Assembly (NCBI GenBank): GCA_016788565.1 | Contig: JAEUSP010000063.1 | Span: 71,919 to 135,918 of the forward strand | Direction of reading: 5' to 3' | DNA length: 64,000 bases | Source: Chlorobiota bacterium | GTDB taxonomy: Bacteria; Bacteroidota; Ignavibacteria; OLB7 | In this document: positions 4,268-62,047 of the stretch, in pieces | Layout: the number at the start of each line of letters is the position of its first letter | How positions within the stretch are numbered: the first letter of the stretch is position 1 | The notes under the pieces: generated by a model | Told to the model about the DNA's origin: nothing | Database searches by the model: none | What the model saw: the letters and a program-made list of their open reading frames with translations, nothing else | Position numbers and translations under genes: made by a program

Positions 4268-4269
4268 TG

Positions 4270-4632: not shown

Positions 4633-4682
4633 GGAGAGAGGTGGGGAAATCAATAATCAATCATCAGAAGGAGTTCAGACCA

Positions 4683-5117
4683 ATGAAGCGTTTTCTCACG
4701 TTGCTTCCTGCCGTTTTGGCGCTTGCGCTGTTGTTTGGCGCGTGCGAAGAAAGCCCCACCGACAGCCCCGTTGATGGCAGCTTAACCGCAACCGTCGGCG
4801 GCACATCGTTCAGCGCAACCAGCAGCACGGTGACAGCACGGAAGGCTGGCGGATCCATCATCGTCACCGGCGACAGCGGCAATGGTGTCAGCATCAGCTT
4901 GACCTTTGCGGCCACAACCACCGGGTCGGTTACGGGAACAGCAATCTACACCGCTGGCCCCGGTGCCGACTTCACCTACGCCGCACCACTTGCCCAAGTG
5001 AACGTCACCAAATTGGATAACGCTACGGTGGAAGGAACGTTCTCCTTCACCGGGGTGAACTCCGCCGGAGCCAGCAAATCCGTCACCAACGGCAGCTTCT
5101 CAGCGGACTTCCAGTAA
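4683..5117 (+). CDS. Hypothetical lipoprotein (signal peptide plus lipobox ALLFGAC)
   Basis: MKRFLTLLPAVLALALLFGACEE is followed by a Thr/Ser/Gly-rich beta-type domain. The ORF-track start at 4629 is upstream of the signal peptide. Confidence 0.55.
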   Translation: MKRFLTLLPAVLALALLFGACEESPTDSPVDGSLTATVGGTSFSATSSTVTARKAGGSIIVTGDSGNGVSISLTFAATTTGSVTGTAIYTAGPGADFTYAAPLAQVNVTKLDNATVEGTFSFTGVNSAGASKSVTNGSFSADFQ

Positions 5118-6141: not shown

Positions 6142-6960
6142 ATGTCTGAACTTCCGCTTGTCACCAAAAGCCAGCTTGTCCACGACCTGCGTGCAATGGG
6201 GATTCACCCGGGCGAGCTTCTGATGCTTCATGTTTCGGTGAAGTCGCTTGGGTGGGTGATTGGGGGGCCGGAAGTGGTGCTGCAAGCCTTGTTCGATGTG
6301 CTGATGCCGGGGGGAACGTTGATGATGATCGCCAGCTGGGACAGTGCCGAAACCGCCTACAGCCTTAGTGAACTTCCCCCCGAGCATCGGCAAGCCTACT
6401 ATCAAGAACTTCCCGCCTACGACCCCCTTACTTCCCATGCTGATTGGCGTGGGATGAGCATCCTTGCCGAATACCTGCGGCTGTGGCCCGGAGCGCATCG
6501 CAGCGGCCACCCGTTCTCCTACGTTGCGGTTGGGTCGCTTGCCAAAACCATCACCGAAAAACAGCCGCTGAACTACCGCGACGGCGTTGGTTCGCCGCTG
6601 GCGAAACTTTGCCAGCTTGGCGGGCGCGTCCTTCAGCTTGGCTCTCCGTTGGGGGATATCACCCTGCTGCACCATGCCGAAACAATGGCAAACGTGCCGA
6701 ACAAACGGGTAGTCCGTTACTCCATGCCGCTGCTGCAAGCTGGCAAACGTGTGTGGGTCCAGATCGAAGAGTTCGACACCTTGCGCGGGATTGTTGATTG
6801 GCCAGAAAATTACTTCGAAGCGATTGCCCGCCAGTATCTGACTTCCGGCAGAGGGACGATGGGGAAAGTCGGTTCGGCAACCGCACGGCTGTACAACGCC
6901 GCCGACCTTGCTGCCTTCGGGATTGAATGGATGGAACGCAATTTTGCGAAGGGGGAATGA
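6142..6960 (+). CDS. Aminoglycoside 3-N-acetyltransferase, AAC(3) family
   Basis: LVHDLRAMGIHPGELLMLHVSVKSLGWVIGGPEVVLQALFDVLMPGGTLMM matches the AAC(3) N-terminal pattern (VHSSLxxLG ... GGxxxVxxALxxxLGxxGTLxMP). Length is 272 aa. Confidence 0.7.
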   Translation: MSELPLVTKSQLVHDLRAMGIHPGELLMLHVSVKSLGWVIGGPEVVLQALFDVLMPGGTLMMIASWDSAETAYSLSELPPEHRQAYYQELPAYDPLTSHADWRGMSILAEYLRLWPGAHRSGHPFSYVAVGSLAKTITEKQPLNYRDGVGSPLAKLCQLGGRVLQLGSPLGDITLLHHAETMANVPNKRVVRYSMPLLQAGKRVWVQIEEFDTLRGIVDWPENYFEAIARQYLTSGRGTMGKVGSATARLYNAADLAAFGIEWMERNFAKGE

Positions 6961-7020
6961 GGGGGGCAGGGCAGGGCTGTTACGTGCTCAAAGAAGGAGT
7001 AGCTTGAGGGCAAAAACTCA

Positions 7021-7130
7021 GGCGACGAATGTTAGGCGACGAATGTCAGGCGACGAATGTCAGGCGAAGCCTGACAGAGAAAGAAAAAATTCCCCTCCAG
7101 TGGAGGGGTGGCAGGCGAAGCCTGACGGGG
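7021..7130. repeat. 14-nt tandem repeat (ggcgacgaatgtca x3) followed by three GC-rich hairpins (gtcaggcGAAgcctgac, cccctccAGTggagggg, caggcGAAgcctg)
   Basis: Read directly. It lies between the AAC(3) stop (6960) and the next + gene (7311). The hairpins may act as a terminator or attenuator, but no clear T-tract follows them. Confidence 0.6.
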
Positions 7131-7310
7131 TGGTGGGCCTACGCATGAGGACAACTATGGCCGGAGCACTCTCACCGCCAAAAAAATACCCCGCCCTGGC
7201 GGGCACCCCTCCAAAGGAGGGGAATGGATAGATACCAGGTTTGGAGCAGGGATGATAAGCCGAGTTTCCACCCTGAACCAAGCTCTCCGCTCAATAATTT
7301 TCGCTGAGCC

Positions 7311-8192
7311 ATGATTGCTTCACCATTCCAACAACCTCACATTCTGGAATCGCCAGAGCATTTTCTTGCAAGAATCGGCACCATCTTCGCTCGGTTCGAT
7401 TCCGCCACCCAGGATTCTGGGAACATCTCCTACGGTGTGCAAATCGGCGGCGAACGCTGGTTTGTGAAAACCGCAGGCTTGGCCGATGATCCCGCCCCGT
7501 TGCTTCCTCACAATCAACGTGTTGAGCTTCTTCGCAACGCCGTGCGGCTGCACCGCTCGGTTGGTGAACATCCCACGCTTCCCAAACTCCATCAGGTCAT
7601 TGAATTTCCCGACGGCCCGTTGCTGGTGTATGGGTGGTGCAATGGTGAGCTTCTTTGGGCACCGCGCCACCTTCGCGATGATCCTGCTTCGGCCTTCCAG
7701 CGGTTTCGCCGTTTGCCAGCCGCCGCAATTTTTTCAGCCCTCGACTCACTCTTCAACCTCCATTTGATTGCTTCGCAGCGTGGATGGATTGCGGTTGATC
7801 TGTACGATGGCTCGCTGTTGTACGACTTCGCAACCTCACAACTCCATGTTGTTGATCTGGATCACTATCATCACGAGCCGTTCCGAAACACGATGGGGCG
7901 GATGTTCGGCTCGGCGCGGTTCATGGCTCCGGAAGAATTGCAGCTGGGGGAGATGATTGACCAACGAACAACGCTTTTCACGCTTGGCCGCATCGCACTC
8001 TGGCTGCTTGGCGACGGAGCCATCAATCCCCAAACATTTCGGGGAACATCGGCCATGCTTCAAGTGTTCCGGCAAGCAACCGAGCCGGAACCTGAGTTGA
8101 GATTTCAGAGTGTGGAGAGTTTTTGGAAGGAATGGAGAAAGGCAATTGAGGGATGTCGGATGTTGAATGCCGAATGTCGAATAGAAGAGTGA
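7311..8192 (+). CDS. Protein-kinase-like (ePK/APH fold) protein with an atypical catalytic loop
   Basis: A Gly-rich loop (SYGVQIGGERW), a VAIK-like WFVKT, catalytic-loop-like IAVDLYDGSLLYD (compare HRDLKPxNLL / HGDLHPGNLL), a DFG-like VVDLDH and an APE motif (FMAPEE). Confidence 0.5.
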   Translation: MIASPFQQPHILESPEHFLARIGTIFARFDSATQDSGNISYGVQIGGERWFVKTAGLADDPAPLLPHNQRVELLRNAVRLHRSVGEHPTLPKLHQVIEFPDGPLLVYGWCNGELLWAPRHLRDDPASAFQRFRRLPAAAIFSALDSLFNLHLIASQRGWIAVDLYDGSLLYDFATSQLHVVDLDHYHHEPFRNTMGRMFGSARFMAPEELQLGEMIDQRTTLFTLGRIALWLLGDGAINPQTFRGTSAMLQVFRQATEPEPELRFQSVESFWKEWRKAIEGCRMLNAECRIEE

Positions 8193-8314
8193 AGAAAGTT
8201 GGAGCTTCCGCCGCACACGGCTCGCTGCTCAAGCTGAAGCCTGTCGAAGTGTGGGCGGAGTTACCGGAATGTCGAATGCAGAGTGTCGAGTTGCTTGGGA
8301 AACTTCAACACACC

Positions 8315-35400: not shown

Positions 35401-35457
35401 TGTGAGTGAGTTTGTTGCTTGGGGACTATTTATGGTTAGCGTGCGAAAATCTCCCTC

Positions 35458-35506
35458 CGCTCATGCTGAGCCCCGTCGAAGTATGAGCGGAGGCCACCGA
35501 ACCTCT
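35458..35506. repeat. Short hairpin repeat element (ccgctcat-N18-atgagcgg plus ggccaccgaacc), also present inverted at 49829..49878
   Basis: cgctcatgctgagccccgtcgaagtatgagcg is nearly identical to the reverse complement of 49841-49878. Confidence 0.6.
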
Positions 35507-35623
35507 AACACTCGCCCCCCTGCTTCGCTCTGGCGAGCTTCGCATCCCCCCAAGTCTGGGGGGAAGATGTAGAGGGAGATGGAATTTCCCCCTTTGCACA
35601 CCAACTACAAATAGGTGAGCCAA

Positions 35624-48335: not shown

Positions 48336-49084
48336 AGAAGCGTCTCTCTTTTCTCCAGATGTTGGTGTGAAAAAAAACAGCGGAGTCGTGCACAGCAATG
48401 GCACAGCCCGTGCCGAAGCGTCACGATGTTCAATCCGGGCAACGTGTGTGTGATGCCGGTTGCGATGGTAGTGGAGTTCCGTCAGTCGGTCGAAGAGAGC
48501 GGCGTTTGTTGGCGGCGAATGCTCAAGCAGAAGAAGGTATGCCAGAAGGCAAGGCCCGCAGCGAAGGGTTGGTGTTCTGCGGCAGGTGTACTGTTGGTAC
48601 AGTTGGGTTGAAGCTGCGGAATGCAGCGGATACAACGCCGTTGTGGCCTGCGAAGAACAGCCCCCCGAACGTTGTAGCCAAAAGAAAAACTGAGTCTTCC
48701 GTTGAACCTACGCCCAGAGCGCCATGACCGAGTTGTGTGGTCGCGAAGCGAATGCAGTGGTAAGAATGTTGGTAAATAACATTGTCGAAGTCCTCCTGTG
48801 AATTTGAACGCGTTCAACGTTCGTGAACAGCCCCGGCTCATGGCGCACTCGCACCCGCCCCGGCAGCGTGATGCACCCCAAACACAAAAATCAGGCCAAA
48901 GTTTCCGGGGGAATAATCAGGTAGTAAGATGCGGAACATCACTTTCCGCTCATGCTACGTGCTGGATGTGTCGAAGCATAAGCAGATGCCACCACGAACG
49001 GCAACGCCTTGCAAGCCAATCCCGCAAGTGGCAGCGTGTCCGATGCTTTCCAAGAAGCGCGCAAGATCGCTTCATCGAAAACCC

Positions 49085-49125
49085 CTCGCGATGACGAGGG
49101 CGCGGTTGCTTCTTATTTTTCCCCT
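49085..49125 (-). terminator. Putative rho-independent terminator downstream of the yjbQ-like gene
   Basis: The minus strand reads ccgcgccctcgtcatcgcgaggggttttcg: a 6-7 bp GC stem, then GTTTTC. Confidence 0.35.
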
Positions 49126-49143
49126 TCTCTTATCTCCTCACTC

Positions 49144-49572
49144 CTATTGCATTGCGCCCATCACCGTTGCCACTACCTTTCGCGTTCCGCCGTGGTTTCT
49201 GTGCTCGCAGAGGTAGATGCCTTGCCATGTTCCAAGCAGCAATCCCCCGTTGGCAATGGGGATGGTTAGCGCGCTTCCAATCAGCACTGCTTTGATGTGT
49301 GCTGGCATATCGTCGGGGCCTTCGTCGGTGTGGCGGTAGTGGCGGGCGTGTTCGGGGGCCAAAATGTTGAAATGCCCCTCAAGGTCGCTACGAACGTCGG
49401 GGCTTGCGTCCTCGTTGATTGCCAACGATGCCGAGGTGTGCTGGATGAAAAGATGCAGCACCCCCACGCTGCAATCCCGAAGCTGGGGCAACGCCGCCAA
49501 CACTTCGTCGGTGATGATGTGGAACCCACGCGAACGCGGGCGCAAGTTGATCTGCTGTTGTGTCCATTCCAT
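49144..49572 (-). CDS. YjbQ/UPF0047-family protein (secondary thiamine-phosphate synthase-like)
   Basis: 142 aa. HIITDEV ... HTSASLAINE ... EGPDDMPAHIKAVL ... LGTWQGIYLCEH matches the UPF0047 pattern. Confidence 0.8.
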   Translation of the reverse strand: MEWTQQQINLRPRSRGFHIITDEVLAALPQLRDCSVGVLHLFIQHTSASLAINEDASPDVRSDLEGHFNILAPEHARHYRHTDEGPDDMPAHIKAVLIGSALTIPIANGGLLLGTWQGIYLCEHRNHGGTRKVVATVMGAMQ

Positions 49573-49589
49573 GATGTGAAAATAGGGGT

Positions 49590-49645
49590 GTGGTGGTGAT
49601 TGGTGATTGGTGATTGGTGATGGTCAGTAGTCAGTAGTCGGTGGG
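49590..49645. repeat. Heptamer tandem array (ggtgatt)x3-(ggtcagta)x2
   Basis: Read directly from the divergent intergenic region. Confidence 0.8.
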
Positions 49646-49690
49646 GGCTTCTGTTTTGTATTACTCCGTGCTTCAGCGCGGAGATTTCGC

Positions 49691-50105
49691 GCCACCTCAC
49701 ATTTCACTCTTCCCACCTCACTCTTCACTCTTCGCTTTGGCCCCCCTCTCCCACTCGACGAATGTGAGGCAACCAGCACTATCACACATTTGGGAGAGGG
49801 CGGGGGGTGAGGGCAGGCGGCGGCGGCTGAGTTCGGTGGCTCACGCTCATACTTCGACGGGGCTCAGCATGAGCCGAGGGCTGGGTTCGCGGTGGTCATT
49901 GGGCAGTGGTCAGTAGTGAGTTTCCGGCTTTGTCTTCATTTCACTCTTCCCACCTCACTCTTCACTCTTCGCTTTGGCCCCCTCTCCCACCCGACGAATG
50001 TGAGGCAACCAGCACTATCACACGCTTGGGAGAGGGCGGGGGGTGAGGGCAGGCAGCGACAGCGGCTGTGTTCGGTGGCTTGGCCGCAATCCGTCGCAAG
50101 GTATT
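49691..50105. repeat. Two direct copies (about 170 bp each, about 240 bp period) of a segment containing the conserved motif tcactcttcccacctcactcttcactcttcg and a long imperfect hairpin (cccctctccca-N40-tgggagaggg)
   Basis: 49691-49850 compared with 49930-50090: nearly identical apart from a few SNPs. Copy 1 additionally carries the 35458-type hairpin element. Confidence 0.8.
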
Positions 50106-50162
50106 GGGCGCGCCCAGAATCCATTGCCACACGGACTGCCCCGTTGTATAATTGCCGCATCT

Positions 50163-52253
50163 ATGACCTTCCTTAATCCTCTGATTCTGATAGCCCTTGC
50201 TGCGGCAGCAATTCCGTTGCTGCTTCATCTGCTCAACCTGCGCAAACTTCGCACGGTTGATTTCTCCTCGCTCCGTTTTTTGAAGGAGCTTCAGAAAAGC
50301 CGCATCCGCCGCCTGAAGCTGAAGCAGTTGTTGCTGCTGCTGCTTCGCATTGGGCTGGTGGTTTTTGCTGTGCTGGCGTTTGCCCGCCCCGCGTTGCGAA
50401 GCTCGTCGGTGCTGCCGGGGGCGCACGCTGCGGCCACCGCTGTTATCCTGATTGACAACTCCTTTTCGATGACCCTGCGCGACGACCAGGGAACCCGATT
50501 CACCCAAGCCAAGCAGGCCGCGTTGGATATTGTGGAGATGCTGGAGGAGAACGACGAAGCCTACATCATCCCGATGACCGACCCGAAAGCCGCCATCAAC
50601 GCCCAGCCGACACGCAACCGCGAGGTGCTGCGGCAGTTGGTGAACGGGCTTGGGCTGAACTTCCGCCGTGCCGATCTGGACGATGCCTTGCGCGCCGCCG
50701 CCACGGTGCTGGATCGCTCCCAAAACATCAATCGCGAACTCTACATCATCACCGATGCCCAACAATCCAACGCCCGTGGGGGAACCGATTCGCTGAAGCT
50801 CTTCACCGGCGATACCCGCATCTACCTTCTTCCCATCGGGGCCAATCATGGGCTGGCCGGAAGCAACCTTGCGCTCGACTCCATCCGTGTGCTTACCTCA
50901 CTGTTTGAACGCGACCGCCCGGTGGAACTTCGCGCTTGGGTGCGCAACTACGGCCAGCGCGATGTTGAAAACGCAACCGTCAGTCTGTATATCGAAGGGA
51001 ATCGTGTGGCGCAATCCGGGGTGGAGGTGAAGGCGGGGGGGAACGCAGTAGTGGAGCTTTCCGCGCCGCCAAAACGGAGCGGGTTGGTGAGCGGACATAT
51101 CCAAGTGGAGGGGGACGATTTTGATTCCGATAACAAACGGTGGTTTGGCTTCCCGGTGGTGGAGCGGATGCGTGTGGCGATTGTTGGAACCCCAGAAAAC
51201 ACCGCCCCGCTTGGGCTGCTGTTCGGCCTGTACGGAACCACACTCACTGCCGACCGCGCCGCCGGAATCGGTGGCTTGGATATGGGCGCGTACTCCACCA
51301 TCATCCTGGCTGACGCGCCCGTGACCCCAGCCGATGCCCGCCGGCTGGGCCAGTTTGTGGAAGAGGGTGGGGGAGTGGTGATCTACGCAGGGCCTTCAAC
51401 CAACCGGGATGCGTTCAACACGGGGTTGGGGGTGAGTTTGGGAATTGGTTTGGGCACGCCAGTAACCGCCACCGACCCATCGGCACCGCTAACGTTTGCT
51501 GCTGTCGAGAAGGAGCATCCGATGTTCAGCGGGGTGTTCGATCCGGCAAACCCGGGCAACATGGTGGAATCCCCCGAACTCACCACAGTTCTTCCCGCAT
51601 CGGGAGGGGAAACCCTGATTCGGCTGACGAACGGAAGCGCGTTTATGAGTGAGTTCCGCAGGGGGCGGGGGCGGGTGGTGTATGTTGGCGCGCCCCCCAG
51701 CGGGGCTTGGGGAAGCCTGGCAACGCGGGGAATTTTTGTGCCGATTGCGTTGCGCAGCGCGCTGTACGTTGGGGCCACCTCCGATCCCTTCCCGCAAGGA
51801 ACCGTTGGCGAAGCAATCACCGTTCCGCTTGCCGCCGCGCAACTGCCAGACCAGGTTCGCGTGACCGGGCCAAACAACCTTGAGCAATTTGTGCCGGTGC
51901 GGAAATATCCATCGGGGGCATCCATCCAAGTGGATAACGCAACCGAGCCGGGAATCTACCGCGTGGATGCTGCGGGAAAGGAGCTGACGTTGTTTGCCGC
52001 CAACATGGGGAGCGGCGAAAGCGACCTAACACCGATGACCGAAAAAGCCTTGCAGCAAGCGATTGGCGTGCGGATGACAAACCCGGCCAACCTCCGCCAG
52101 CTTCAATCCAGCGGAAGCAATTTCGGCGCAGCAATCATCGAATCCCGTTTCGGCCTAGAGTTGTGGAAGTACATGCTTGCGCTGGCCTTACTCTGTGCGT
52201 TTGCCGAGATGTTTGTGGGGAGGGTTCCAAAAAATGCTGAAGCAGGGGGGTGA
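50163..52253 (+). CDS. BatA-N (double-TM aerotolerance-type N-terminal domain) plus VWA-domain membrane protein
   Basis: MTFLNPLILIALAAAAIPLLLHLLNLRKLRTVDFSSLRFL matches the BatA N-terminal double-TM domain. A VWA-like region (AVILIDNSFSM). A C-terminal TM helix. About 697 aa from the ATG at 50163. Confidence 0.6.
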   Translation: MTFLNPLILIALAAAAIPLLLHLLNLRKLRTVDFSSLRFLKELQKSRIRRLKLKQLLLLLLRIGLVVFAVLAFARPALRSSSVLPGAHAAATAVILIDNSFSMTLRDDQGTRFTQAKQAALDIVEMLEENDEAYIIPMTDPKAAINAQPTRNREVLRQLVNGLGLNFRRADLDDALRAAATVLDRSQNINRELYIITDAQQSNARGGTDSLKLFTGDTRIYLLPIGANHGLAGSNLALDSIRVLTSLFERDRPVELRAWVRNYGQRDVENATVSLYIEGNRVAQSGVEVKAGGNAVVELSAPPKRSGLVSGHIQVEGDDFDSDNKRWFGFPVVERMRVAIVGTPENTAPLGLLFGLYGTTLTADRAAGIGGLDMGAYSTIILADAPVTPADARRLGQFVEEGGGVVIYAGPSTNRDAFNTGLGVSLGIGLGTPVTATDPSAPLTFAAVEKEHPMFSGVFDPANPGNMVESPELTTVLPASGGETLIRLTNGSAFMSEFRRGRGRVVYVGAPPSGAWGSLATRGIFVPIALRSALYVGATSDPFPQGTVGEAITVPLAAAQLPDQVRVTGPNNLEQFVPVRKYPSGASIQVDNATEPGIYRVDAAGKELTLFAANMGSGESDLTPMTEKALQQAIGVRMTNPANLRQLQSSGSNFGAAIIESRFGLELWKYMLALALLCAFAEMFVGRVPKNAEAGG

Positions 52254-52263
52254 GATTCTGTGG

Positions 52264-52400
52264 GTGGTCAGTTGTCAGTTGTCAGTTGTCAGTTGTCATT
52301 AGTCAGTTTCCGGCTTTGACTTCATCTCACTCTTCACTCTTCACTCTTCACTTTGGCTTTGGCTTCGTTTCACTCTTCCCAACTCACTCTTCACTCTTCG
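52264..52400. repeat. Heptamer arrays (gtcagtt)x4 and (cactctt)x3 ending in the conserved tail ttcactcttcccaactcactcttcactcttcg, upstream of ubiE
   Basis: Read directly. The tail motif is shared with 49704, 49940 and 54033. Confidence 0.85.
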
Positions 52401-52584
52401 ATGCCGCAGGTGTGTGAGCAGTGAACGCTATAGTTTCTATTTCCTACTTCCTATTTCCTCCCCTCCCCCCACCCGGGATGCAATTTGGAAACCTTCACCC
52501 GTGAAGGATTCGGCAAGTTTGCGGCGGTGTTCGGCAACGGGGTTGCCGCGCCACATCTTCATTCAGGACAATCACAACGCCTTC

Positions 52585-53274
52585 ATGTCCGAGCAAGTTC
52601 GCTTGATGTTCACGGAAATTGCCGAGCGGTACGATGCCGGCAACGACGCGCTCTCCTTTGGCACTCATCGCCTTTGGAAACGCCGATTGATCCGCCGCGC
52701 CGCTGTCCGCCCCGGCGCGCAGGTGCTGGACGTTGCCACCGGAACCGGCGACATCGCGCTCCGGTTTGCCGATGCTGTTGGTCCGCAGGGGAGCGTGGTG
52801 GGGGTTGATTTTTCTGCCAAGATGATCCAGCAAGCCAAGCAACGCCCCAACAACCAAAAGCCCAACCTCAGCTTTGAAGTCGGCGATGCCATGGGCCTCC
52901 GCTTCCCCGATAACAGCTTCGATGCAACCTCCATCTCCTTCGGCATCCGCAACGTTGATGAACCCGTGGTCGCGCTTCGCGAAATGCGCCGCGTTGTGAA
53001 ACCCGGCGGGCGTGTTCTGGTGATGGAGTTCGGCCAGCCGCGTGGATTGTTCGGGGCGTTGTACCGTTTCTACATCAGCAACATCGGTCCGATTATCGGC
53101 GGCATTATCAGCGGCAAACGCTACGCCTACCAGTATCTGGATCGCACCGCGGCTGCGTTCCCCGCCGGCCAAGCGTTTCTGGAGTTGATGAAACAAGCCG
53201 GGTTCCAAAACCCAACAAAAGAAGCGTTGTTCGGGGGGATTGCCTACATCTACATTGGGGTGAAAGAGAATTGA
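52585..53274 (+). CDS. ubiE: Demethylmenaquinone/ubiquinone C-methyltransferase UbiE/MenG
   Basis: MFTEIAERYDAGNDALSFGTHRLWKR ... VLDVATGTGDIA (SAM motif I) ... ending ..GGIAYIYIGVK, typical of UbiE/MenG. Confidence 0.85.
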   Translation: MSEQVRLMFTEIAERYDAGNDALSFGTHRLWKRRLIRRAAVRPGAQVLDVATGTGDIALRFADAVGPQGSVVGVDFSAKMIQQAKQRPNNQKPNLSFEVGDAMGLRFPDNSFDATSISFGIRNVDEPVVALREMRRVVKPGGRVLVMEFGQPRGLFGALYRFYISNIGPIIGGIISGKRYAYQYLDRTAAAFPAGQAFLELMKQAGFQNPTKEALFGGIAYIYIGVKEN

Positions 53275-53290
53275 AAATGGAGAATTGAAA

Positions 53291-53911
53291 ATGGAGACTG
53301 AGTTGATGTTGCGGCATTCCATCACCGTCGGTATTTCTGGCGGAAGCGGCGCGGTGTATGCGGTGCGACTTCTTGAAATACTTCCACGGTACTACCGCCG
53401 TGTGAACATCGTCATGTCGAACGCTGCGCGCCAGGTGCTTGCCCAGGAGGTTGATGTTGTGGCCCCGGCAGCCGGCGCGTGGGGGTTGCCAAACGCCACG
53501 CCGGAAGAAGCCGAACGGGTCCTGATCTGGAACAACCAGAACTACAACGCGCCGTTTGCCAGCGGAAGCAATTGCCCCGACCAGATGGTGATTGTCCCGT
53601 GTTCGATGAGCACCGTTGCAAGCATCGCCCACGGCATTGACCAAAACCTGATGCACCATGCCGCAGCGGTGATGCTGAAGGAGAAAAAACAACTCATTCT
53701 TGTCCCCCGCGAGACTCCGCTGTCGGCCATCCACCTGCGAAATATGCTCACGCTGGCCGAGCTGGGTGTGACGTTGGTTCCGGCAATGCCCGGCTTCTAC
53801 AGCGGCCAATCAACCTTCGATGACCTTATCAACTTCGTCCTGCAGAAAGTGCTGAACCAACTGAACATTGATCTGAAACTTAGCAGGAAATGGGGGGAGG
53901 GAGGGGGGTGA
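53291..53911 (+). CDS. ubiX: UbiX/Pad1-family flavin prenyltransferase (possibly an MqnM-type role in the futalosine pathway)
   Basis: ITVGISGGSGAVYAVRLLE ... LVPRETPLSAIHLRNMLTLAELG is the UbiX signature. The first ATG is at 53291; the ORF track starts at an upstream TTG. Confidence 0.8.
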   Translation: METELMLRHSITVGISGGSGAVYAVRLLEILPRYYRRVNIVMSNAARQVLAQEVDVVAPAAGAWGLPNATPEEAERVLIWNNQNYNAPFASGSNCPDQMVIVPCSMSTVASIAHGIDQNLMHHAAAVMLKEKKQLILVPRETPLSAIHLRNMLTLAELGVTLVPAMPGFYSGQSTFDDLINFVLQKVLNQLNIDLKLSRKWGEGGG

Positions 53912-53924
53912 TGAATGTGGTCAG

Positions 53925-54065
53925 TGGTCAGTGGTCAGTGGTCAGTGGTCAGTGGTCAGTGGTGAGTGGTCAGTGGTGAGTGGTGAGTGGTGAGTGGTGA
54001 GTGGTGAGTGGTGAGTGGTTGGTGTTGGCTCTATCTCACTCTTCCCATCTCACTCTTCACTCTTC
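53925..54065. repeat. Heptamer arrays (gtggtca)x6 and (gtggtga)x7 plus the conserved tail tctcactcttcccatctcactcttcactcttcg, upstream of the MqnC/E-like gene
   Basis: Read directly. Confidence 0.85.
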
Positions 54066-54141
54066 GACATGGGTGAGGGTTGGCAGCGACGGCGAGCAGC
54101 ACAAAAAAGATCAACAACTAAAACAGTTTTTCCAGACCTCC

Positions 54142-55224
54142 ATGTCTTCCAAACTCCTATCCCGCGTTCGCTCCTTGCTTGAACGGCAGGAACGAATCGG
54201 CGTTGATGATTGCCAGGAATTATTCCAGGTGAAGGACCTTGCGGCGATTGCCACGCTTGCCCGCATCCCACGCGAACGCCGCCACGGCCGCAACGCCCAC
54301 TATCGCGCCATTGTCCCGCTAACCGTTGCCACCGTTGATGACCTTGCCCAAGCTGGCGGCCAGTTGGAACCTGAGTCCGGGGCGGTTGGGATTGCGGTTC
54401 GGCCTGATGGCCAGGCTGCCGCCACGCTGGGGGCGTTGATGGAGCTGCAATCCGCCATGCGATTGCTTCCGTTGCCCGCTACTCTCTTCATTTCTGCAGG
54501 AATCATTGCACGCGCTGCCGAAGCCACGGGAAGCTCAATCCCCGAAGCAGTGCAAGCGTTGGCGGGTGGTGGCGGGGTGTTCATCAACGGCGACGAAGCC
54601 GAGCTTTCCGACGCGACGTTCCGCACGGCGCACACCGCCGCTGCAATCCCATTTCCGCAGTGGCTTGCTGTTCACCGCGCCGCCCATGCCGCAGGGCTGA
54701 AAACTGGTGCTTCAATGCTCTACACCGTCCACGATCGCCCAGCGGAATATGCCGCACATCTTCAGGCGATTCGCCAGCTTCAGGATGAAACCAACGGCTT
54801 CGTTCAGTTTGTGCCGATGGGGGTCCAAAACAGGGATGTTGCCGAGTGGTATCTGGTTGCGCCAACCGCAGCGCAATCGCTTCGTGTGGTGGCGGTTGCG
54901 CGGATGTTCTTGGATTCCATCCCCCACATCGCCGTTGCCCCGTCGTTGATTACCAGCGAAGAATCGTTTGTGGCCTTAAGCTACGGAGCCAACATGGTGG
55001 ATTCCACCATCGCCGTTGGCGACGTTTGTTCCGATGAAGGTTTGGGCGTTGCCGCTGCGGAGGGGGCTTCGCTTCCGGTGATTGCCGCATCCACGGCGCG
55101 CCAGCGTGGCGGAATCCTTCCGCGAACTATTCACAGCCGGATTGTTGAATCCCGCCACATCCCGGTTCCGATGGACGCGGCCTTCGGCGAAATTTCATCC
55201 CTGACTATTCTTGCCCAGCAGTAA
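54142..55224 (+). CDS. MqnC/MqnE-family (radical-SAM-fold) paralog that lacks the CxxxCxxC cluster-binding cysteines
   Basis: It aligns along its whole length with the C-terminal half of the next gene (shared GxGAEI..D.VR, WL.VHR, MLY, IRQLQDE motifs). At the cluster-binding site it reads RNAHYRAIVPLTVATVDD where the neighbour has RNINYTNVCNVDCGFCGF. Confidence 0.55.
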   Translation: MSSKLLSRVRSLLERQERIGVDDCQELFQVKDLAAIATLARIPRERRHGRNAHYRAIVPLTVATVDDLAQAGGQLEPESGAVGIAVRPDGQAAATLGALMELQSAMRLLPLPATLFISAGIIARAAEATGSSIPEAVQALAGGGGVFINGDEAELSDATFRTAHTAAAIPFPQWLAVHRAAHAAGLKTGASMLYTVHDRPAEYAAHLQAIRQLQDETNGFVQFVPMGVQNRDVAEWYLVAPTAAQSLRVVAVARMFLDSIPHIAVAPSLITSEESFVALSYGANMVDSTIAVGDVCSDEGLGVAAAEGASLPVIAASTARQRGGILPRTIHSRIVESRHIPVPMDAAFGEISSLTILAQQ

Positions 55225-55247: not shown

Positions 55248-57245
55248 ATGCCAACACTTGCACCTTCCCGAAAAAAACTGCGCGTGGTCGCGGCGGACTT
55301 CCTGAACTCGCTTCCACTAACCGTGGAAATGGCCGAAGATGAGTTGTTCAATTTCGAATATGTGATCCCCAGCGAAGGGGCGCGCCGAATGATGGAGCAG
55401 GAAGCCGACATCGCTTTGTTGCCGGTGGCGGCCGTGGCCGAGATTGGCGGCTTGGAGGTTGTCCCCGGCCCTTGCATCGGCGCAAACGGAAGGGTGGAGT
55501 CGGTGGTGATTGTCAGCCAGGTTCCGCTGGATAAGGTTCAGCGATTGCTGATTGACAACGCCAGCCGGACCTCGGTGGTGCTGGCAAAAATTTTCATGGA
55601 TTCGGTGGGGAAAGGTGACATCCCATTTATTCGGATGCCGGGCCAAGCGATTCCGGCAAACGTGAAAGGGACTGATGCTGGCCTTCTGATTGCCGACATC
55701 GCTTTCCGCGAATCGAAGCAGTTCAAATATCGCCACGACCTTGCCGATGCGTGGAAACGATTAACTGGCGAACCGTTTGTTTTTGCCGTCTGGGCTGCGC
55801 AGCCCGGGGTGCTTACTCCAGAGTTGGTGGAGCGAATCAACCGCCGGTTTTGGGATGGGATTGCCCGCAAGCATCAGATTATTGAGGAGTGGGCCGCGAA
55901 ACATGGAATGCCAAAAGCTGAGGTGGCCGATTATTTGGATGAGCGCATTCAGTTCAATCTGAACAAATCCGCGTGGTACGGAATGCAGGAATTTTTCCGG
56001 TTGGGAAGCAACATGCGATTGCTTCCCGATGCACGGGTGGAATTTGCCACGCCGCAGGAACCGCAAAACGGCATCAACACCTTCGGCAAATTTGTGCCGG
56101 AGGTTGTCCCCTACAGCCGCAGCTATGGCGTGGATCGAATTTTGGCGCGCGCCGATGCTGGCCGCCGCATCAGCATCCACGATGCCGAACGGCTCTATCT
56201 GGAGGCGGACTTGACCGACATCGGTGAGGTTGCCAACAACATCCGCAATCGGATGAACCCTGGCGGGCGTGTCAGCTACATTATTGCCCGCAACATCAAC
56301 TACACCAACGTCTGCAATGTGGATTGCGGTTTCTGCGGATTCTACCGCAGCGATGACCCCAAGCGCAAAGGCCACAACGAAGGCTACGTCCTGACCCGCC
56401 AGCAGCTCCGCGAAAAAATGGATGAGCTTGCCGACGGCGATGGTGTGCAGGCATTGGTGCAAGGTGGGGTGAACCCAAATTTGCCGCTGGAATACTACAC
56501 CGACTTGCTCCGTTGGATGAAACGTGAGTGGCCGCAAATCCAGCAAAACAGTTTCAGTGCCGACGAGGTTCTGGGGCTGTGTCCGAACACAACTCCGCAA
56601 GAAATTTCCGCCGTGCTGCACGCCTTGCGCGATGCTGGTTTGGACACCTTTGCTGGTGCCGGGGCGGAGATTCTGGTAGATAAAGTTCGCAAGCGGGTAA
56701 GCTACAAGAAGAGCCGCTCGGCGGTGTGGTTAGAGGTGATGCGGCAGGTGGGGATCATGGGGATGAAGGCCTCGGTGACGATGCTGTACGGCATGGGAGA
56801 AACCACCCGTGATAAGTTTGCGCACATGGCAAAAATTCGCCAGTTGCAAGATGAAGTTTCCCCGTTTATGGTGTTTATCACGTGGCCGTACCAGAAAGGC
56901 CCTGAGCAGAAAATTAAATCGTTCGACCAAGCCGGGGCAACGTATTTACGGGTGCAGGGGATTTCGCGAATTTTCTTCGATAATATCCAGCACATCATGT
57001 GCAGTTGGGTGACACAAGGCCCTGACATCGGCCAGACCGCGCTTTATTATGGAGCCGATGATTTTGGGTCGGTGATGTTCGAGGAGAACGTGGTATCGGC
57101 CAGCGGAACCACCTACAAAATGAACGCAAACTCCATGGAGCATTGCATCCGCGAAGCAGGCTTTATTCCATTCCGCCGCAAAGGGGATTTTAGCGAGTGG
57201 GACTTGGTGGAGCATCAGATGCTGCAAAATACTCGCGTACTATGA
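55248..57245 (+). CDS. Fusion of MqnA (chorismate dehydratase, PBP-like fold) with a radical-SAM MqnE/MqnC-type enzyme (futalosine menaquinone pathway)
   Basis: The N-terminal approximately 270 aa are MqnA-like (LRVVAADFLNSLPL..). The C-terminal approximately 380 aa carry NINYTNVCNVDCGFCGF (Cx3Cx2C) and MqnC/E/CofH-like motifs. Which of MqnC or MqnE it is cannot be decided by eye. Confidence 0.65.
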   Translation: MPTLAPSRKKLRVVAADFLNSLPLTVEMAEDELFNFEYVIPSEGARRMMEQEADIALLPVAAVAEIGGLEVVPGPCIGANGRVESVVIVSQVPLDKVQRLLIDNASRTSVVLAKIFMDSVGKGDIPFIRMPGQAIPANVKGTDAGLLIADIAFRESKQFKYRHDLADAWKRLTGEPFVFAVWAAQPGVLTPELVERINRRFWDGIARKHQIIEEWAAKHGMPKAEVADYLDERIQFNLNKSAWYGMQEFFRLGSNMRLLPDARVEFATPQEPQNGINTFGKFVPEVVPYSRSYGVDRILARADAGRRISIHDAERLYLEADLTDIGEVANNIRNRMNPGGRVSYIIARNINYTNVCNVDCGFCGFYRSDDPKRKGHNEGYVLTRQQLREKMDELADGDGVQALVQGGVNPNLPLEYYTDLLRWMKREWPQIQQNSFSADEVLGLCPNTTPQEISAVLHALRDAGLDTFAGAGAEILVDKVRKRVSYKKSRSAVWLEVMRQVGIMGMKASVTMLYGMGETTRDKFAHMAKIRQLQDEVSPFMVFITWPYQKGPEQKIKSFDQAGATYLRVQGISRIFFDNIQHIMCSWVTQGPDIGQTALYYGADDFGSVMFEENVVSASGTTYKMNANSMEHCIREAGFIPFRRKGDFSEWDLVEHQMLQNTRVL

Positions 57246-59956: not shown

Positions 59957-62047
59957 TTATCGTTTGCCGCCAAATTTTTTCCCGCCGCCAGGTCGCCCTC
60001 CGCCAAATCCTTTGTTGAAGTCGCGGCGTGGCCGTTCGCCATCGTTGCGGCGGTCGCCAAACGGGCGGCGGTTGTCATCGCGTTTCCCGAAGCTCCGTTC
60101 GCCAAAATCGTGGCGTGGCCGTTCGCTATCGTTGCGGTCGTTGAAGTTGCGGCGTGGCCGTTCGCCATCGTTGCGGTCGTTGAAGTTGCGACGTGGGCGG
60201 TCGCCGTCGTTGCGGTCGTTGAAATCACGGCGTGGTCGGTCGCCAAATGGGCGGCGGTCGTCATCCCGTTTCCCGAAACTCCGTTCGCCGAAATTGCGGC
60301 GTGGCCGTTCGCCATCGTTGCGGTCGTTAAAGTTGCGGCGTGGCCGTTCGCCATCGTTGCGGTCATTGAAATCACGGCGTGGTCGGTCGCCAAATGGGCG
60401 GCGGTCGTCGTCCCGTTTTCCGAAACTCCGTTCGCCGACATTGCGACGTGGCCGGTCGCCATCATTGCGGTCGTTGCGGTCGTTGAAGTTGCGACGTGGC
60501 CGATCTCCATCGTTGCGGTCGTTGAAATCACGGCGTGGTCGGTCGCCAAACGGGCGGCGGTTGTCATCCCGTTTCCCGAAGCTCCGTTCACCGAAATTGC
60601 GGCGTGGGCGTTCGCCGTCGTTGCGGTCGTTGAAGTTGCGGCGTGGGCGGTCGCCGTAGGGCCGACGGTCGTCGTTTCTTGCTTCCGAGCTGCGGCGTGG
60701 GCGGCTTTGGTCTCCACGTTCTTCAAACTTGCGGCGTGGCCGTTCGCCTTCTTGCTCACCTTGCTCCATCTCCGGTTTCCCCCCTTCATCATCGTGCGCC
60801 ACGAACCGCTCGGCACTCCGTTTCCGAATCGGGCGGTTGCCCCCTGTTTCGGCTCCTGCGTCTTCTTCGGCTTCTTCGGCCACACGCTCTTCTCCCCAAA
60901 TTGTTTTGTACGTTGTTGCGGGTTCGGGCCAAGCGGTATCATCATCTTCCTCCATTTCCAACTCCAACTCTTCTTCATCAAGCTCGGAGTGCGGCCCCAG
61001 CACCACAACAAATTCGCCACGGAATTTTTTCTCAACGAACCGCTCGTTCAGCCCTGCAAGGGTGTCGTGCAGCACTGCTTCGTTCGGCATGGTGAGGTTC
61101 ATGGCCAACGCGGCGGGGCGCAGTGGCATGGCATCGGCAAGGATGGAGAGAAGGGAGCGAAGGCGGTAGGGAGTTTCCAGGATGACCACCGTGCGGGTGC
61201 GGAGGCGCAGTGCTCGTGCGGCAAGTTCCCGTTCGCCAATTTTGCGGGGAAGGAACCCAACCATATCGAATTCATCAATCCCAAAACCGCTGACCATCAG
61301 GGCTGTGGTGATGGAGCTTACGCCCGGGATGACCGTTGGCCGCAACTTGAGTTCGCGCAGTTTCTGGACTAACGTTGCGCCTGGATCCGCCACCAGCGGC
61401 AATCCGGCATCGCTGATAACGGCAACGGTTTTTCCGGCGTTCAGCAGTGCGATCACTTCTTCGGTGGCTTCTTCCTCGTTGTGTTCGTTCATCTCCATCA
61501 GCTTTGCGCTGATGTTGTGAGTTCGCATGATTCGCGCACCAACTTTTGCTTCCTCGCAAACCACAACATCGGCGTTGGCAAGGGTGCGGATTGCCCGCAG
61601 CGTGATGTCGCCATCGTTGCCGATGGGGACCCCAACAAAAAAGATATTCCCGGAGCGTTTGATCCGTACTGCTTCGGTTTCTTCTTCCGTCTCTTCCTCG
61701 CTTGTGGCCTCATCTTCGTTCGGCTGGTCAATCTCCGCAGCATCTGCCAAGCTGGCTTCGGTCTGTTCGGCCTCTTCTTCCTTCGGCTCATCCCGCTCGT
61801 CAGCGTCCGCCATGCTAATTTCTTCCAAGCTGCGTTCGGTCTGCTCGGCTTGTTCTTCCATTGCGGGTTCCTCGGTTCCGGCGTTGCCGGTGGGTGTGTC
61901 GCTCGTTTCTGGGATGAAGGTTGCGTCCTCTATCTGCAGAGGTTGTTGCACCGGCTGTTCGCTTGGTATCGTGGTCTCTTCCGCGTTATCTGGTTGGTTG
62001 GTCATGGATTGCGTTGATGAAAAAAAATCTGAGTCACTCTCGTGCAC
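59957..62047 (-). CDS. rsmI: 16S rRNA 2'-O-methyltransferase RsmI core, with an acidic N-terminal extension and a roughly 330-aa C-terminal Arg/Asp-rich tandem-repeat tail
   Basis: Core: IFFVGVPIGNDGDITLRAIRTLANADVVVCEE ... AGLPLVADPG ... ETPYRL (tetrapyrrole-methylase fold, RsmI). Tail: about 10 copies of the RPRRNFNDRNDGE(R) / FGERSFGKRDDNRRPFGD units. The start is uncertain: the listed start is GTG inside a 14-nt tandem array. Confidence 0.65.
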   Translation of the reverse strand: MHESDSDFFSSTQSMTNQPDNAEETTIPSEQPVQQPLQIEDATFIPETSDTPTGNAGTEEPAMEEQAEQTERSLEEISMADADERDEPKEEEAEQTEASLADAAEIDQPNEDEATSEEETEEETEAVRIKRSGNIFFVGVPIGNDGDITLRAIRTLANADVVVCEEAKVGARIMRTHNISAKLMEMNEHNEEEATEEVIALLNAGKTVAVISDAGLPLVADPGATLVQKLRELKLRPTVIPGVSSITTALMVSGFGIDEFDMVGFLPRKIGERELAARALRLRTRTVVILETPYRLRSLLSILADAMPLRPAALAMNLTMPNEAVLHDTLAGLNERFVEKKFRGEFVVVLGPHSELDEEELELEMEEDDDTAWPEPATTYKTIWGEERVAEEAEEDAGAETGGNRPIRKRSAERFVAHDDEGGKPEMEQGEQEGERPRRKFEERGDQSRPRRSSEARNDDRRPYGDRPRRNFNDRNDGERPRRNFGERSFGKRDDNRRPFGDRPRRDFNDRNDGDRPRRNFNDRNDRNDGDRPRRNVGERSFGKRDDDRRPFGDRPRRDFNDRNDGERPRRNFNDRNDGERPRRNFGERSFGKRDDDRRPFGDRPRRDFNDRNDGDRPRRNFNDRNDGERPRRNFNDRNDSERPRHDFGERSFGKRDDNRRPFGDRRNDGERPRRDFNKGFGGGRPGGGKKFGGKR
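59975..60700. repeat. In-frame DNA tandem repeats (about 105-bp super-unit made of about 30-bp sub-units) encoding the RD-rich tail
   Basis: Repeated ..cgttgcggtcgttgaagttgcggcgtggccgttcgccatcgttgcggtcg.. blocks are visible across 60000-60660. Confidence 0.8.

Follow-up and report, generated by a model that had tools for sequence, protein, structure and literature searches.

A probable mosaic of slippage-driven heptanucleotide arrays and REP-like palindromes, rather than a shared promoter, upstream of BatA and menaquinone genes in a Chlorobi-group genome

The divergent genes yjbQ and BatA of an uncultured Chlorobi-group bacterium are separated by a gap of 590 bp, in which a preliminary description of the 64,000-nucleotide stretch of DNA analyzed here (the window) had recognized a heptamer array followed by two copies of a longer segment. 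The existence of this region and its array was borne out, with coordinates and sequences matching after small corrections (Table 1). The question raised by the locus is whether its repeats constitute a promoter or conserved upstream element shared with other genes, or whether they belong to a class of intergenic repeats. At a probability of about 0.7, we favor the reading that slippage-driven heptanucleotide arrays of the STRR/LSSR type and REP/BIME-like palindromes form mosaic intergenic repeats here, and not a shared promoter.

Table 1. Positions of the genes, repeat parts and conserved block in the window.
Feature	Position	Strand	Remarks
Mini-mosaic at a gene 3' end, between convergent genes	8153..8253	minus	
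hp2, intact palindrome CCTCCGCTCAT / ATGAGCGGAGG	35453-35502	minus	11-bp stem; downstream of a gene
yjbQ (UPF0047)	49144-49572	minus	
Heptamer arrays adjoining the yjbQ start	49594..49639	+	TRF
Tail copy 1, 31-nt G-free TCACTCTTCCCACCTCACTCTTCACTCTTCG	49704-49734	+	
hp1 copy 1	49735..49809	+	RNA fold -35.2 kcal/mol, z -3.3
G-rich "post" segment GGGTGAGGGCAGGCGGCGGCGGC	49805..49830	+	
hp2, degenerate copy	49832..49885	+	Weak fold, z -0.1
Short mixed heptamer array (GGTGGTCATTGGGCAGTGGTCAGTAGTGAG), then spacer TTTCCGGCTTTGTCTTCAT	49891..49939	+	
Tail copy 2	49941-49971	+	Identical to copy 1
hp1 copy 2 and post segment	49972..50066	+	Fold z -2.0
Conserved BatA-proximal block	50082..50162	+	Outside the repeats; homology to relative B resumes at 50082
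BatA/VWA gene	ATG 50163	+	
Module upstream of ubiE	52267..52400	+	Without hp1
Tail copy 3, upstream of ubiE	52370-52400	+	
(CTATTTC)3.3 array and C-rich run, closing the ubiE-upstream insert	52437..52475	+	Absent in relatives B and C
Module upstream of the 360-aa gene	53917..54096	+	Without hp1
Tail copy 4, upstream of the 360-aa gene	54036-54066	+	

Adjoining the start of yjbQ, TRF resolves the arrays into (TGGTGAT)4 at 49594-49621 and (GTCAGTA)2.4 at 49623-49639. The remainder of the spacer holds a two-unit repeat: positions 49700-49745 equal 49937-49982 over 46 nt (100% identity), 49737-49827 match 49973-50063 at 91%, and 49817-49841 match 50056-50080 at 88%, the offset between the duplicate blocks being 236-239 bp. 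From these matching blocks and their spacing it follows that the near-identical part measures ~142 bp and that the period is ~237 bp; the duplication had thus been described correctly, while its length had been overestimated at ~170 bp. The copies had also been said to end in the tail and a hairpin; in the actual order, the tail opens each copy and the hairpin comes after it. Because at least five other samples yielded the same two-unit structure in independent assemblies, an assembly artefact was rejected.

The tail is a 31-nt G-free sequence, TCACTCTTCCCANCTCACTCTTCACTCTTCG, with four occurrences, all on the plus strand and all inside 4.4 kb. In heptamer register, tail copy 1 reads TCACTCT, TCCCACC, TCACTCT and TCACTCT, and the tail is an array of four TCACTCT-type units, one of which is the fixed variant TCCCANC. 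This variant unit is kept in every tail copy, including one on another metagenome contig (L046), and its constancy could reflect constraint and not recent copying. The tail is far commoner than chance, its 15-mer core being matched 8 times with no more than 2 mismatches where 0.13 matches are expected; in the other ~80 kb examined (the window plus 10 kb on either side), no further full 31-nt tail or hp1 copy was found. A genome collection that does not include the source genome was scanned with CTCACTCTTCACTCTTCG and returned 39 scattered loci in unrelated phyla, with one match each except for one locus with two, and many of these loci fall within other (CTTCACT)n arrays. The single match of a metagenome scan with the 29-mer tail was L046, and three scans of viral contigs, with the tail, the hp1 loop and hp2, gave no match.

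Following the tail, hp1 begins with CTTTGG and continues with the arms CCCCCCTCTCCCA and TGGGAGAGGGCGG (copy 1). The preliminary description had reported a hairpin with a loop of 40 nt and had proposed a prediction of its fold; the hairpin is present, with the predicted folds given in Table 1, and its dimensions are corrected to arms of 13 nt, 92% complementary and 37 nt apart, the 37-nt interior containing a further AATGTG/CACATT stem. The hp1 set known so far comprises the two copies in the window, a variant in L002, one copy in L046 and a variant with the same stem in L064-67. The hp1 copies are 96% identical, loops included, and hp1 is bracketed by TTTGG direct repeats. The post segment comes after hp1, and also after the fourth tail, where hp1 is absent. 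In the same lineage, an ISAs1-like element and a MITE derivative are active and insert beside such G-rich sites; the genuine MITE of this lineage has GCAGGGYTGTTAAG ends and looks quite different from the module. The second palindrome, hp2, is present in one intact and two degenerate copies in the window and in one copy in L046; the degenerate copy in the yjbQ-BatA spacer has the structure GTTCGGTGGC..CGCTCAT-ACTTCGACGGGGCTCAGC-ATGAGC..GAGGG. Together, hp1 and hp2 can be viewed as a second kind of repeat, small palindromes comparable to REP elements, next to the heptamer arrays, whose words may be grouped into the families GTGGTCA/GTCAGTN/GGTGATT, AATGTCA/AATGTCG and TCACTCT.

Parts of this layout recur at two further sites. 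Upstream of ubiE, the order is (GTCAGTT)6, the spacer TTTCCGGCTTTGACTTCAT, (TCACTCT)3.7, two CTTTGG and tail copy 3, and upstream of a gene for a 360-aa protein, (GTGGTCA/GTGGTGA)14.7 is followed by tail copy 4 and a post-like GGGTGAGGGTTGGCAGCGACGGCGAG at 54071-54096. Of the proposed element of array, spacer and tail, the spacer motif TTCCGGCTTTGNCTTCAT is present in two of the four tail instances and missing from the other two. The gene next to tail copy 4, which had been described as MqnC/E-like, encodes instead the 360-aa hypothetical protein, with its true ATG at 54142, and precedes an MqnA/MqnC fusion at 55248-57245. The gene calls for BatA, ubiE and a "407-aa" ORF all extend too far, into arrays. 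Likewise, the tail lies on the coding strand in all four cases, as had been noted, but these represent only three independent sites in 4.4 kb, and related arrays can run either with or against the downstream gene (CCACTGA at 4354-4602 versus GTGGTCA at 53917). At site 3, the 360-aa gene, the array and tail fold better than every shuffle (z -3.15), and at site 2, ubiE, the module shows no stable fold (z -0.4). Pairing between array and tail RNA as a general rule was rejected on these two values.

The full-length tails cluster around BatA and the menaquinone genes and lie on the strand of the downstream gene, a pattern which is unexpected for a purely random repeat family, although local copying can yield the same pattern. 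It is this clustering of four same-orientation tails at functionally related plus-strand genes that invites the rival explanation of a cis-regulatory module, in which array, spacer and tail, with or without the hairpin, would act as an operator or UP-type DNA site or as a 5'-UTR RNA element and co-regulate BatA with the menaquinone genes (ubiE-ubiX, and the 360-aa gene with the MqnA/C fusion), and in which heptamer copy number might tune expression. The G-free, pyrimidine-rich tail, which would be unstructured as RNA, and the stable fold at site 3 are consistent with such a role, as are the regulatory proposals made for heptamer repeats near promoters and start codons in Nostoc (bioRxiv 10.1101/2022.06.06.494920) and for those of Beggiatoaceae (PMC4679880), and the phase variation driven by intergenic simple sequence repeats in Haemophilus influenzae (PMC12721329). 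Nevertheless, the lack of a stable fold at site 2 and the small number of independent sites speak against it, and the comparison with related genomes renders it unlikely.

Three relatives were compared: relative A, a strain with 97-98% DNA identity, relative B with 85% and relative C with 80%. Between the strains, the arrays lengthen and shorten in steps of 7 nt. The yjbQ-side array between the same anchors measures 46 nt here and 53 nt in relative A (5 TGGTGAT-type copies), the TCACTCT array upstream of ubiE 25 versus 32 nt, and the array upstream of the 360-aa gene 103 versus 40 nt, so that all differences (7, 7 and 63 nt) are multiples of 7. This variation of copy number among strains is what a tunable regulatory module would also display. 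In the sister species, however, the module itself is missing: BLAST alignments with relative B stop at 49585/50082, 52253/52475 and 53893/54140, precisely where the modules begin and end, and the yjbQ-BatA spacer of relative B is only 118 bp long. Arrays and tail were not found at the orthologous yjbQ-BatA and ubiE sites of relatives B and C, both of which lack the whole ubiE module; in relative C, both ubiE and the 360-aa gene are without upstream arrays and the latter is also without a tail, whereas at the 360-aa gene relative B carries different arrays, with the tail heptamer reversed (GAAGAGT, the reverse complement) and with GAAGGAT, CCAATGA and CCACTGA arrays on the coding strand. TCACTCT-type arrays are thus reversed in relative B, and also at 8184-8198 in the window. 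Both relatives retain the promoter-proximal blocks and synteny. A gene-cassette or integron-like reading, in which the tails would be direct repeats flanking BatA and ubiE-ubiX, was rejected because relatives without tails keep the same gene order.

The sequences which are conserved lie closer to the start codons than the repeats. The only sigma-70-like site returned by a promoter scan of 49400-54300 is located outside the repeats, at 50124-50152, and consists of TTGCCA (50124-50129), a spacer of 17 nt and TATAAT (50147-50152), with 11 of 12 positions matching; relative B keeps it as TTGCCG-17-TATAAT. This promoter-like site would give BatA an almost leaderless mRNA, with a predicted transcription start near 50158-50160. 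Counted from the ATG, the two BatA tails are found 192 and 429 bp upstream, distal to this conserved near-consensus promoter, and a conserved block of ~110 nt separates the module from the ATG of ubiE. The repeats themselves contain no -35/-10 hexamers (sigma-70 scan, 49400-54300) and no promoter or terminator signal, and neither a promoter nor an intrinsic terminator flanks the unit of tail, hp1 and post segment. The blocks are distal to the conserved core promoter or leader sequences and absent in sister species. The modularity claimed in the preliminary description was upheld, as array, spacer, tail and hairpin do turn up in varying combinations, but the reading of the repeats as a promoter or conserved upstream regulatory element is not supported.

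Combinations of array, spacer, tail, hp1, post segment and hp2 are copied as blocks, which are found as two tandem units at yjbQ-BatA, in partial form at ubiE and the 360-aa gene, and as a two-unit composite on the other contig. There, in L046, the same composite (87% identity over 279 bp) sits directly 3' of the stop codon of an unrelated ABC-ATPase gene, and this position after an unrelated gene is again at odds with a cis-regulatory module. The first L046 unit lacks hp1 and joins CTTTGG directly to GAGAGGG, where the other copies read CTTTGG-hp1-TTTGG and then GAGAGGG. In other relatives, the orthologous ABC gene is followed by an hp1-like palindrome with the same stem and a different loop; when the ABC-ATPase protein was used to look for the L046 locus in the window species, its copy was not found, and the relatives' contigs end in repeats or lack them. 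Within the window, gene 3' ends carry repeat parts at 35.4 kb (hp2) and at 8.2 kb, where the mini-mosaic unites AATGTCG-type heptamers with a tail-like CTTTCTTCACTCTTC (8184-8198, minus) and an hp2-like stretch (8227-8253, minus). All strict period-7 arrays (9/9) fall in the non-coding 10.7% of the window, and in TRF, arrays of 7 or 14 nt occupy 11 of 29 intergenic gaps of at least 50 bp in these 64 kb. None of six convergent gaps has a TRF array, one case at a gene 3' end being additional, and this near-absence hints at a preference for regions that hold a gene 5' end.

The presence of the composite at a second locus raises the possibility that a unit of ~240-480 bp, or hp1 alone, is a non-autonomous mobile element of MITE or REP/RAYT type, with a transposase encoded elsewhere. 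Such an element would account for the presence or absence of hp1 between TTTGG direct repeats, for the 96% identity of the hp1 copies including their loops and for the assembly breaks (many assemblies break in the tail or hp1, and several independent ones within tail copy 1), and the ISAs1-like element and its MITE derivative are active in this lineage. However, deletion by slippage across a palindrome accounts equally well for copies in which hp1 is missing from between the TTTGG repeats. Furthermore, terminal inverted repeats and a target-site duplication are both lacking at the module ends, which differ between instances, and the boundaries are inconsistent, since a tail may occur with or without spacer, hp1 and post segment. 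Neither stem, hp1 or hp2, is preceded by the GTAG typical of a REP head, no Y1_Tnp (RAYT) domain was found among the genes annotated in ~84 kb around the window, and no further copy is present in 84 kb of the genome. We consider a mobile element quite improbable.

A more speculative reading takes the tail with its invariant TCCCANC unit not for a slippage product that became frozen but for a putative recognition site of a protein that would bind heptamer repeats as single-stranded RNA or DNA and couple BatA to menaquinone expression. We regard this as very doubtful; if true, the protein would be part of a machinery that also explains very similar words (GTCAGTN, TGGTCA, TAACTGA) in the intergenic DNA of Cyanobacteria, Beggiatoaceae, Bacteroidetes and a Chlorobi-group lineage.

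Nothing reached Rfam gathering thresholds in the whole window, a search of 49400-54300 with E up to 5 gave only two eukaryotic families (a microRNA precursor and a snoRNA), far below gathering scores, and a tRNA/tmRNA scan found none. Among 8 hp1 copies, a covariation test revealed no compensatory change, the copies being too alike (96%), and three stem-breaking substitutions. That the unit of tail, hp1 and post segment is a small structured RNA (an sRNA or riboswitch-like leader) in two tandem gene copies is hardly credible, even though hp1 copy 1 beats its shuffles and the predicted fold of unit 2 pairs the tail through G-U with the G-rich post segment and so lengthens the hp1 stem, for besides these results and the missing promoter and terminator, the whole units fold unremarkably (z -1.2 and -2.2), hp1 is dispensable in three module instances and sister species lack the unit.

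We therefore return to mosaic intergenic repeats. Array length would change by replication slippage, and the blocks would spread by local duplication, gene conversion or recombination between arrays, and not by a transposase with defined ends. Such repeats are probably devoid of sequence-specific function, and a sequence-specific regulatory role would not need to be assigned to the blocks. They may still tune spacing or mRNA structure: indirectly, the blocks could alter the spacing of the divergent yjbQ and BatA promoters, and blocks transcribed inside the ubiE-ubiX-X-mqn gene string could add secondary structure to the mRNA.

With this locus, an uncultured Chlorobi-group lineage joins the scattered bacteria whose intergenic DNA is full of related heptanucleotide arrays, and arrays and palindromes form higher-order repeats copied between loci. 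These repeats break metagenome assemblies, may create chimeric joins, for example the junction of tail, hp1, a MITE and a TPR/GerE gene in L002, and mislead gene callers. In searches for regulatory motifs in such genomes, the repeat layer should be subtracted first, and the candidates for regulation are the conserved blocks proximal to start codons, not the conspicuous repeats.

Several known systems share features with the module. MITEs and Correia-type elements (Neisseria; Nezha-type in cyanobacteria) are ~100-250 bp long, form hairpins, lie upstream of genes, vary among strains and break assemblies. The module resembles them in size, hairpin potential, upstream position, strain variability and assembly breaks, and differs in having neither terminal inverted repeats nor a consistent target duplication and in its varying composition. 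REP/BIME elements of enterobacteria are short imperfect extragenic palindromes arranged in mosaics with other motifs, with a composition that depends on the site; they lie between co-transcribed genes and at gene 3' ends and can stabilize or structure mRNA. Similarly, hp1 and hp2 are imperfect extragenic palindromes that appear dispersed, in mosaics that are also found at gene 3' ends and between presumably co-transcribed genes. In contrast to REP elements, hp1 is longer, with its 13-nt stem around a conserved 37-nt interior, both copies are direct and do not alternate in orientation, neither a GTAG head nor, in the ~84 kb annotated, a RAYT gene was found, and a count of two hp1 and two or three hp2-like copies in 84 kb suggests that they are few. 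With the simple sequence repeats that underlie phase variation in Haemophilus (PMC12721329), the tracts share a location near promoters or start codons and a strain-variable copy number. Here, however, nothing places the tracts between -35 and -10 or in the 5' UTR of a surface or contingency gene; the flanking genes have housekeeping functions (menaquinone synthesis, BatA, YjbQ), and the tracts are far longer and mixed.

The closest parallels lie with the STRR/LSSR class of cyanobacteria, marine Beggiatoaceae and some Bacteroidetes, whose 7-nt units stand head to tail in at least three copies between genes. One spacer may mix several heptamer families, and the class also shows indels in 7-nt steps between strains, absence from the same site in close relatives and assembly breaks. 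All of this is seen here, the tandem 7-nt units showing an intergenic preference (as judged from 64 kb), unit-step polymorphism and rapid turnover. The words themselves are related: GTCAGTT and GTCAGTA match TCAGTTA, the reverse complement of TAACTGA, at 6/7 positions, and GTGGTCA and TGGTCAT are similar to TTGGTCA, a heptamer word of cyanobacterial STRRs. Beggiatoaceae, Cyanobacteria and Bacteroidetes have been described as carrying intergenic heptamer arrays which close relatives lack at the corresponding sites and which show 7-nt-step indels, their origin and function being still unexplained (PMC4679880); the TAACTGA repeats of Beggiatoaceae are treated there, in a source that also summarizes Mrazek et al., 2007, and STRR hairpins have been described in Nostoc (PMC2670836). 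The present host, an uncultured Chlorobi-group MAG, belongs to a lineage outside the PMC4679880 list, and its arrays differ in being joined to a fixed 31-nt variant array and to palindromes in a higher-order repeat of ~237 bp.

The repeats around the divergent pair yjbQ and BatA, which are separated by 590 bp in the uncultured "Chlorobi/Chlorobiota bacterium" (NCBI name; proteins MBL79877xx; G+C of the window 54.5%), are best explained as a mosaic that combines REP-like palindromes with heptanucleotide arrays prone to slippage and that would be copied as blocks between intergenic sites, near and distant. At the left end of the yjbQ-BatA spacer, (TGGTGAT)4 and (GTCAGTA)2.4 arrays and a unique 64-nt stretch lead to the first tail, a 31-nt G-free motif (TCACTCTTCCCACCTCACTCTTCACTCTTCG), which is followed by hp1, a palindromic hairpin element with 13-nt arms and 37 nt in between, and by a G-rich segment termed post. 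Then follow hp2 (a second palindrome, degenerate), a short array of mixed heptamers and the spacer TTTCCGGCTTTGTCTTCAT, after which a second unit repeats tail, hp1 and post. The units are offset by 236-239 bp and share 88-100% identity across ~142 bp. Independent assemblies of several samples contain this two-unit structure, and an assembly artefact is thereby ruled out. Further tails, both preceded by heptamer arrays, lie upstream of ubiE (site 2) and of a hypothetical 360-aa protein gene ahead of the MqnA/MqnC fusion gene (site 3). Given this recurrence and eight matches to the 15-mer tail core at ≤2 mismatches (0.13 expected), sequence comparison confirms the duplicated units and recurring tail of the preliminary description.

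Positions of features in the window
Feature	Position	Strand	Remark
Second large mosaic	4268-4683		between two + strand genes
MITE-related copy	~6967-7240
14-mer array	7018-7067
Miniature mosaic	8153-8253		gene 3' end
Intact hp2	35453-35502	minus	downstream of a gene
Small palindrome family	35530-35600	minus	adjoins hp2
Gap	48336-49143		808 bp, between ABC-transporter gene start and yjbQ 3' end
119-aa ORF	48482-48841	minus	in this gap
yjbQ (UPF0047)	49144-49572	minus
BatA promoter-like site	50124-50152		TTGCCA-17-TATAAT
BatA/VWA gene	ATG 50163	plus
Third tail	52370-52400
ubiE upstream block	52476-52584		~110 nt, non-coding
ubiE	ATG 52585
Fourth tail	54036-54066
360-aa protein gene	ATG 54142
TP_methylase-domain ORF	59957-62047	minus	in-frame tandem repeats at 60051-60655

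The tail is not abundant: the 84 kb read from this genome contain four copies, all inside 4.4 kb. Its register (TCACTCT TCCCANC TCACTCT TCACTCT) makes it a heptamer array itself, and 20 nt ahead of the third tail comes a plain (TCACTCT)3.7 array. As seen across the 64-kb window, this genome habitually carries heptamer or 14-mer arrays: all nine strict period-7 arrays fall inside the non-coding fraction (10.7% of the window), and TRF detects arrays in 11 of 29 intergenic gaps measuring at least 50 bp. The words fall into a small number of related families, namely GTGGTCA (rotated, GTCAGTG), GTCAGTT, GTCAGTA, GGTGATT, GTGGTGA, AATGTCA/AATGTCG and TCACTCT, and can face either way with respect to the gene that follows, as with CCACTGA at 4354-4602 versus GTGGTCA at 53917, both upstream of + strand genes. 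The second large mosaic starts with (AATGTCA)9 and continues with a higher-order unit of 68-75 bp, present in 3.2 copies and made of CCACTGA arrays, CCATCAGTGAAGGAAATGCC and AATGTCA repeats. In the 14-mer array, (TCAGGCGACGAATG)3.6, the stretch CGACGAATGTNAGGC matches the hp1 interior (49755-49770) at 14 of 15 positions, and the palindromes thus seem to consist of the heptamer words that make up the arrays.

An 18-mer scan of a genome collection found (CTTCACT)n arrays in many phyla, including unrelated ones (among them Prevotella, Lachnospiraceae, Chitinophagales, Planctomycetota and Paenibacillus; loci L009, L014, L019, L022, L027, L032, L038, L040 and L041). Some of these form inverted pairs around a ~40-60-nt spacer, and other heptamer arrays adjoin small hairpins (L035/L042, L044, L031, L020). 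Elsewhere in the window, the repeats in the TP_methylase-domain ORF have periods of 39, 147, 156 and 186 nt, and the protein is called at 564, 626, 633 or 669 aa depending on strain or sample. The gap beside yjbQ holds no called gene and no arrays, only the 119-aa ORF.

Orthologous loci, fetched by exact-protein look-ups, came from relatives A (97-98% DNA identity), B (85%; GCA_020850315.1) and C (80%). Relative A keeps all modules, meaning the combinations of array, spacer, tail and palindromes, and its array lengths are changed between identical anchors (46 nt in the window versus 53, 25 versus 32, and 103 versus 40), always by multiples of 7. In relative B, homology breaks and resumes at 49585/50082, 52253/52475 and 53893/54140, which are the exact module boundaries; its yjbQ-BatA spacer measures 118 bp, and no arrays separate BatA from the ubiE gene that follows. 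Different arrays are found in other spacers of relative B; one of them, GAAGAGT on the coding strand, is the tail heptamer in reverse complement. Relative C lacks arrays at the ubiE and 360-aa-gene sites. The modules are absent from relatives B and C, and the stretches between modules and start codons are conserved in all the relatives; the modules are therefore insertions or expansions of recent, lineage-specific origin that lie distal to the conserved control regions.

Block-copying between loci would proceed by local duplication, gene conversion or recombination between arrays. The sole metagenome match to the tail, L046, contains the same two-unit composite (array, spacer-like stretch, tail variant, post, hp2, array, TTTCCCGCTTTGTCTTCAT, tail, hp1, post) directly 3' of an ABC-ATPase gene stop codon, 87% identical to the window over 279 bp. 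Its first unit lacks hp1, with the gap exactly between two TTTGG repeats, which could mark an empty site or a deletion caused by slippage. At the ABC locus of other relatives, a palindrome with the hp1 stem (CCCTCTCCC/GGGAGAGGG) has a different loop and TTTCCGGCT ahead of it, and their contigs end within it; many contigs of the window species likewise end inside tail 1 or hp1. Dispersal is also indicated by the intact hp2 downstream of a gene and by the miniature mosaic, which combines AATGTCG-type heptamers with tail-like and hp2-like stretches. The MAG contig L002 departs from the window sequence in a variant hp1, followed by a MITE and a different gene, and reflects either a genuine rearrangement or chimeric joining across a further hp1 copy. 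This MITE-like derivative shares its ends with an insertion sequence in relative A (L047 1-260, L053 1-290), presumably ISAs1-like from its transposase N-terminus, which lies just after the BatA stop (equivalent to window ~52253), has ends GCAGGGCTGTTAAG and seems to have duplicated 10 bp of its target (GGGGGGTGAG). The small palindrome family, CCCCCCAG(A/G)CTTGGGGGG, also occurs in relative B (L051 ~6400-6440).

The fold prediction proposed for the hairpin gave hp1 more stable than shuffles (z -3.3 for copy 1, -2.0 for copy 2), while whole units were unremarkable (z -2.2 and -1.2) and array plus tail folded well at site 3 (z -3.15) and not at site 2 (z -0.4). Among eight hp1 copies, identity including the loops is 96%, and there are three stem-breaking substitutions and no compensatory changes, a pattern indicative of recent copying, not of a conserved fold. 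Rfam gave no match in the window, 49400-54300 included, nor a family for the ubiE upstream block.

The preliminary description read the repeats as a modular upstream element. Their location upstream and on the same strand at three independent sites would fit a regulatory role, as would the clustering of tails near BatA and menaquinone genes, the tail's conserved variant heptamer unit, and published proposals that heptamer repeats affect expression (bioRxiv 10.1101/2022.06.06.494920; PMC4679880), but we consider such a role improbable because the element is missing from sister species whose gene order and conserved promoter blocks are the same. A scan of 49400-54300 found no promoter or terminator consensus in the repeats. 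The only sigma-70-like promoter there (11/12 matches) lies in the 81-nt conserved block proximal to BatA, is matched by TTGCCG-17-TATAAT in relative B (L051), and ends 10 nt before the ATG, which would imply a leaderless or nearly leaderless BatA mRNA. The ubiE upstream block, kept in relatives down to 80% identity with GGATGCAATTTGGAAA and GCAAGTTTGC invariant, may represent a leader, or else a promoter that includes operator sites. Gene calls, whether longest-ORF or public, place starts within the repeats, at 50043 (BatA), 52414/52519 (ubiE) and 54001 ("407-aa" protein), and starts based on the relatives shorten BatA from 736 to 696 aa, ubiE from 286 or 251 to 229 aa, and the "407-aa" protein to 360 aa, as annotated by NCBI; calls for the latter range over 345-416 aa, mainly because start placement and array length differ.

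For a block-copied mosaic of arrays and palindromes, the enterobacterial REP/BIME elements would be the nearest parallel as regards palindromes and mosaic composition. Cyanobacterial STRR arrays are among the closest described phenomena (PMC2670836). Furthermore, intergenic heptamer repeats have been described in Beggiatoaceae, Cyanobacteria and Bacteroidetes (PMC4679880), and the window arrays resemble them in their words, in indels of 7 nt, in being missing from the corresponding site of close relatives and in breaking assemblies.
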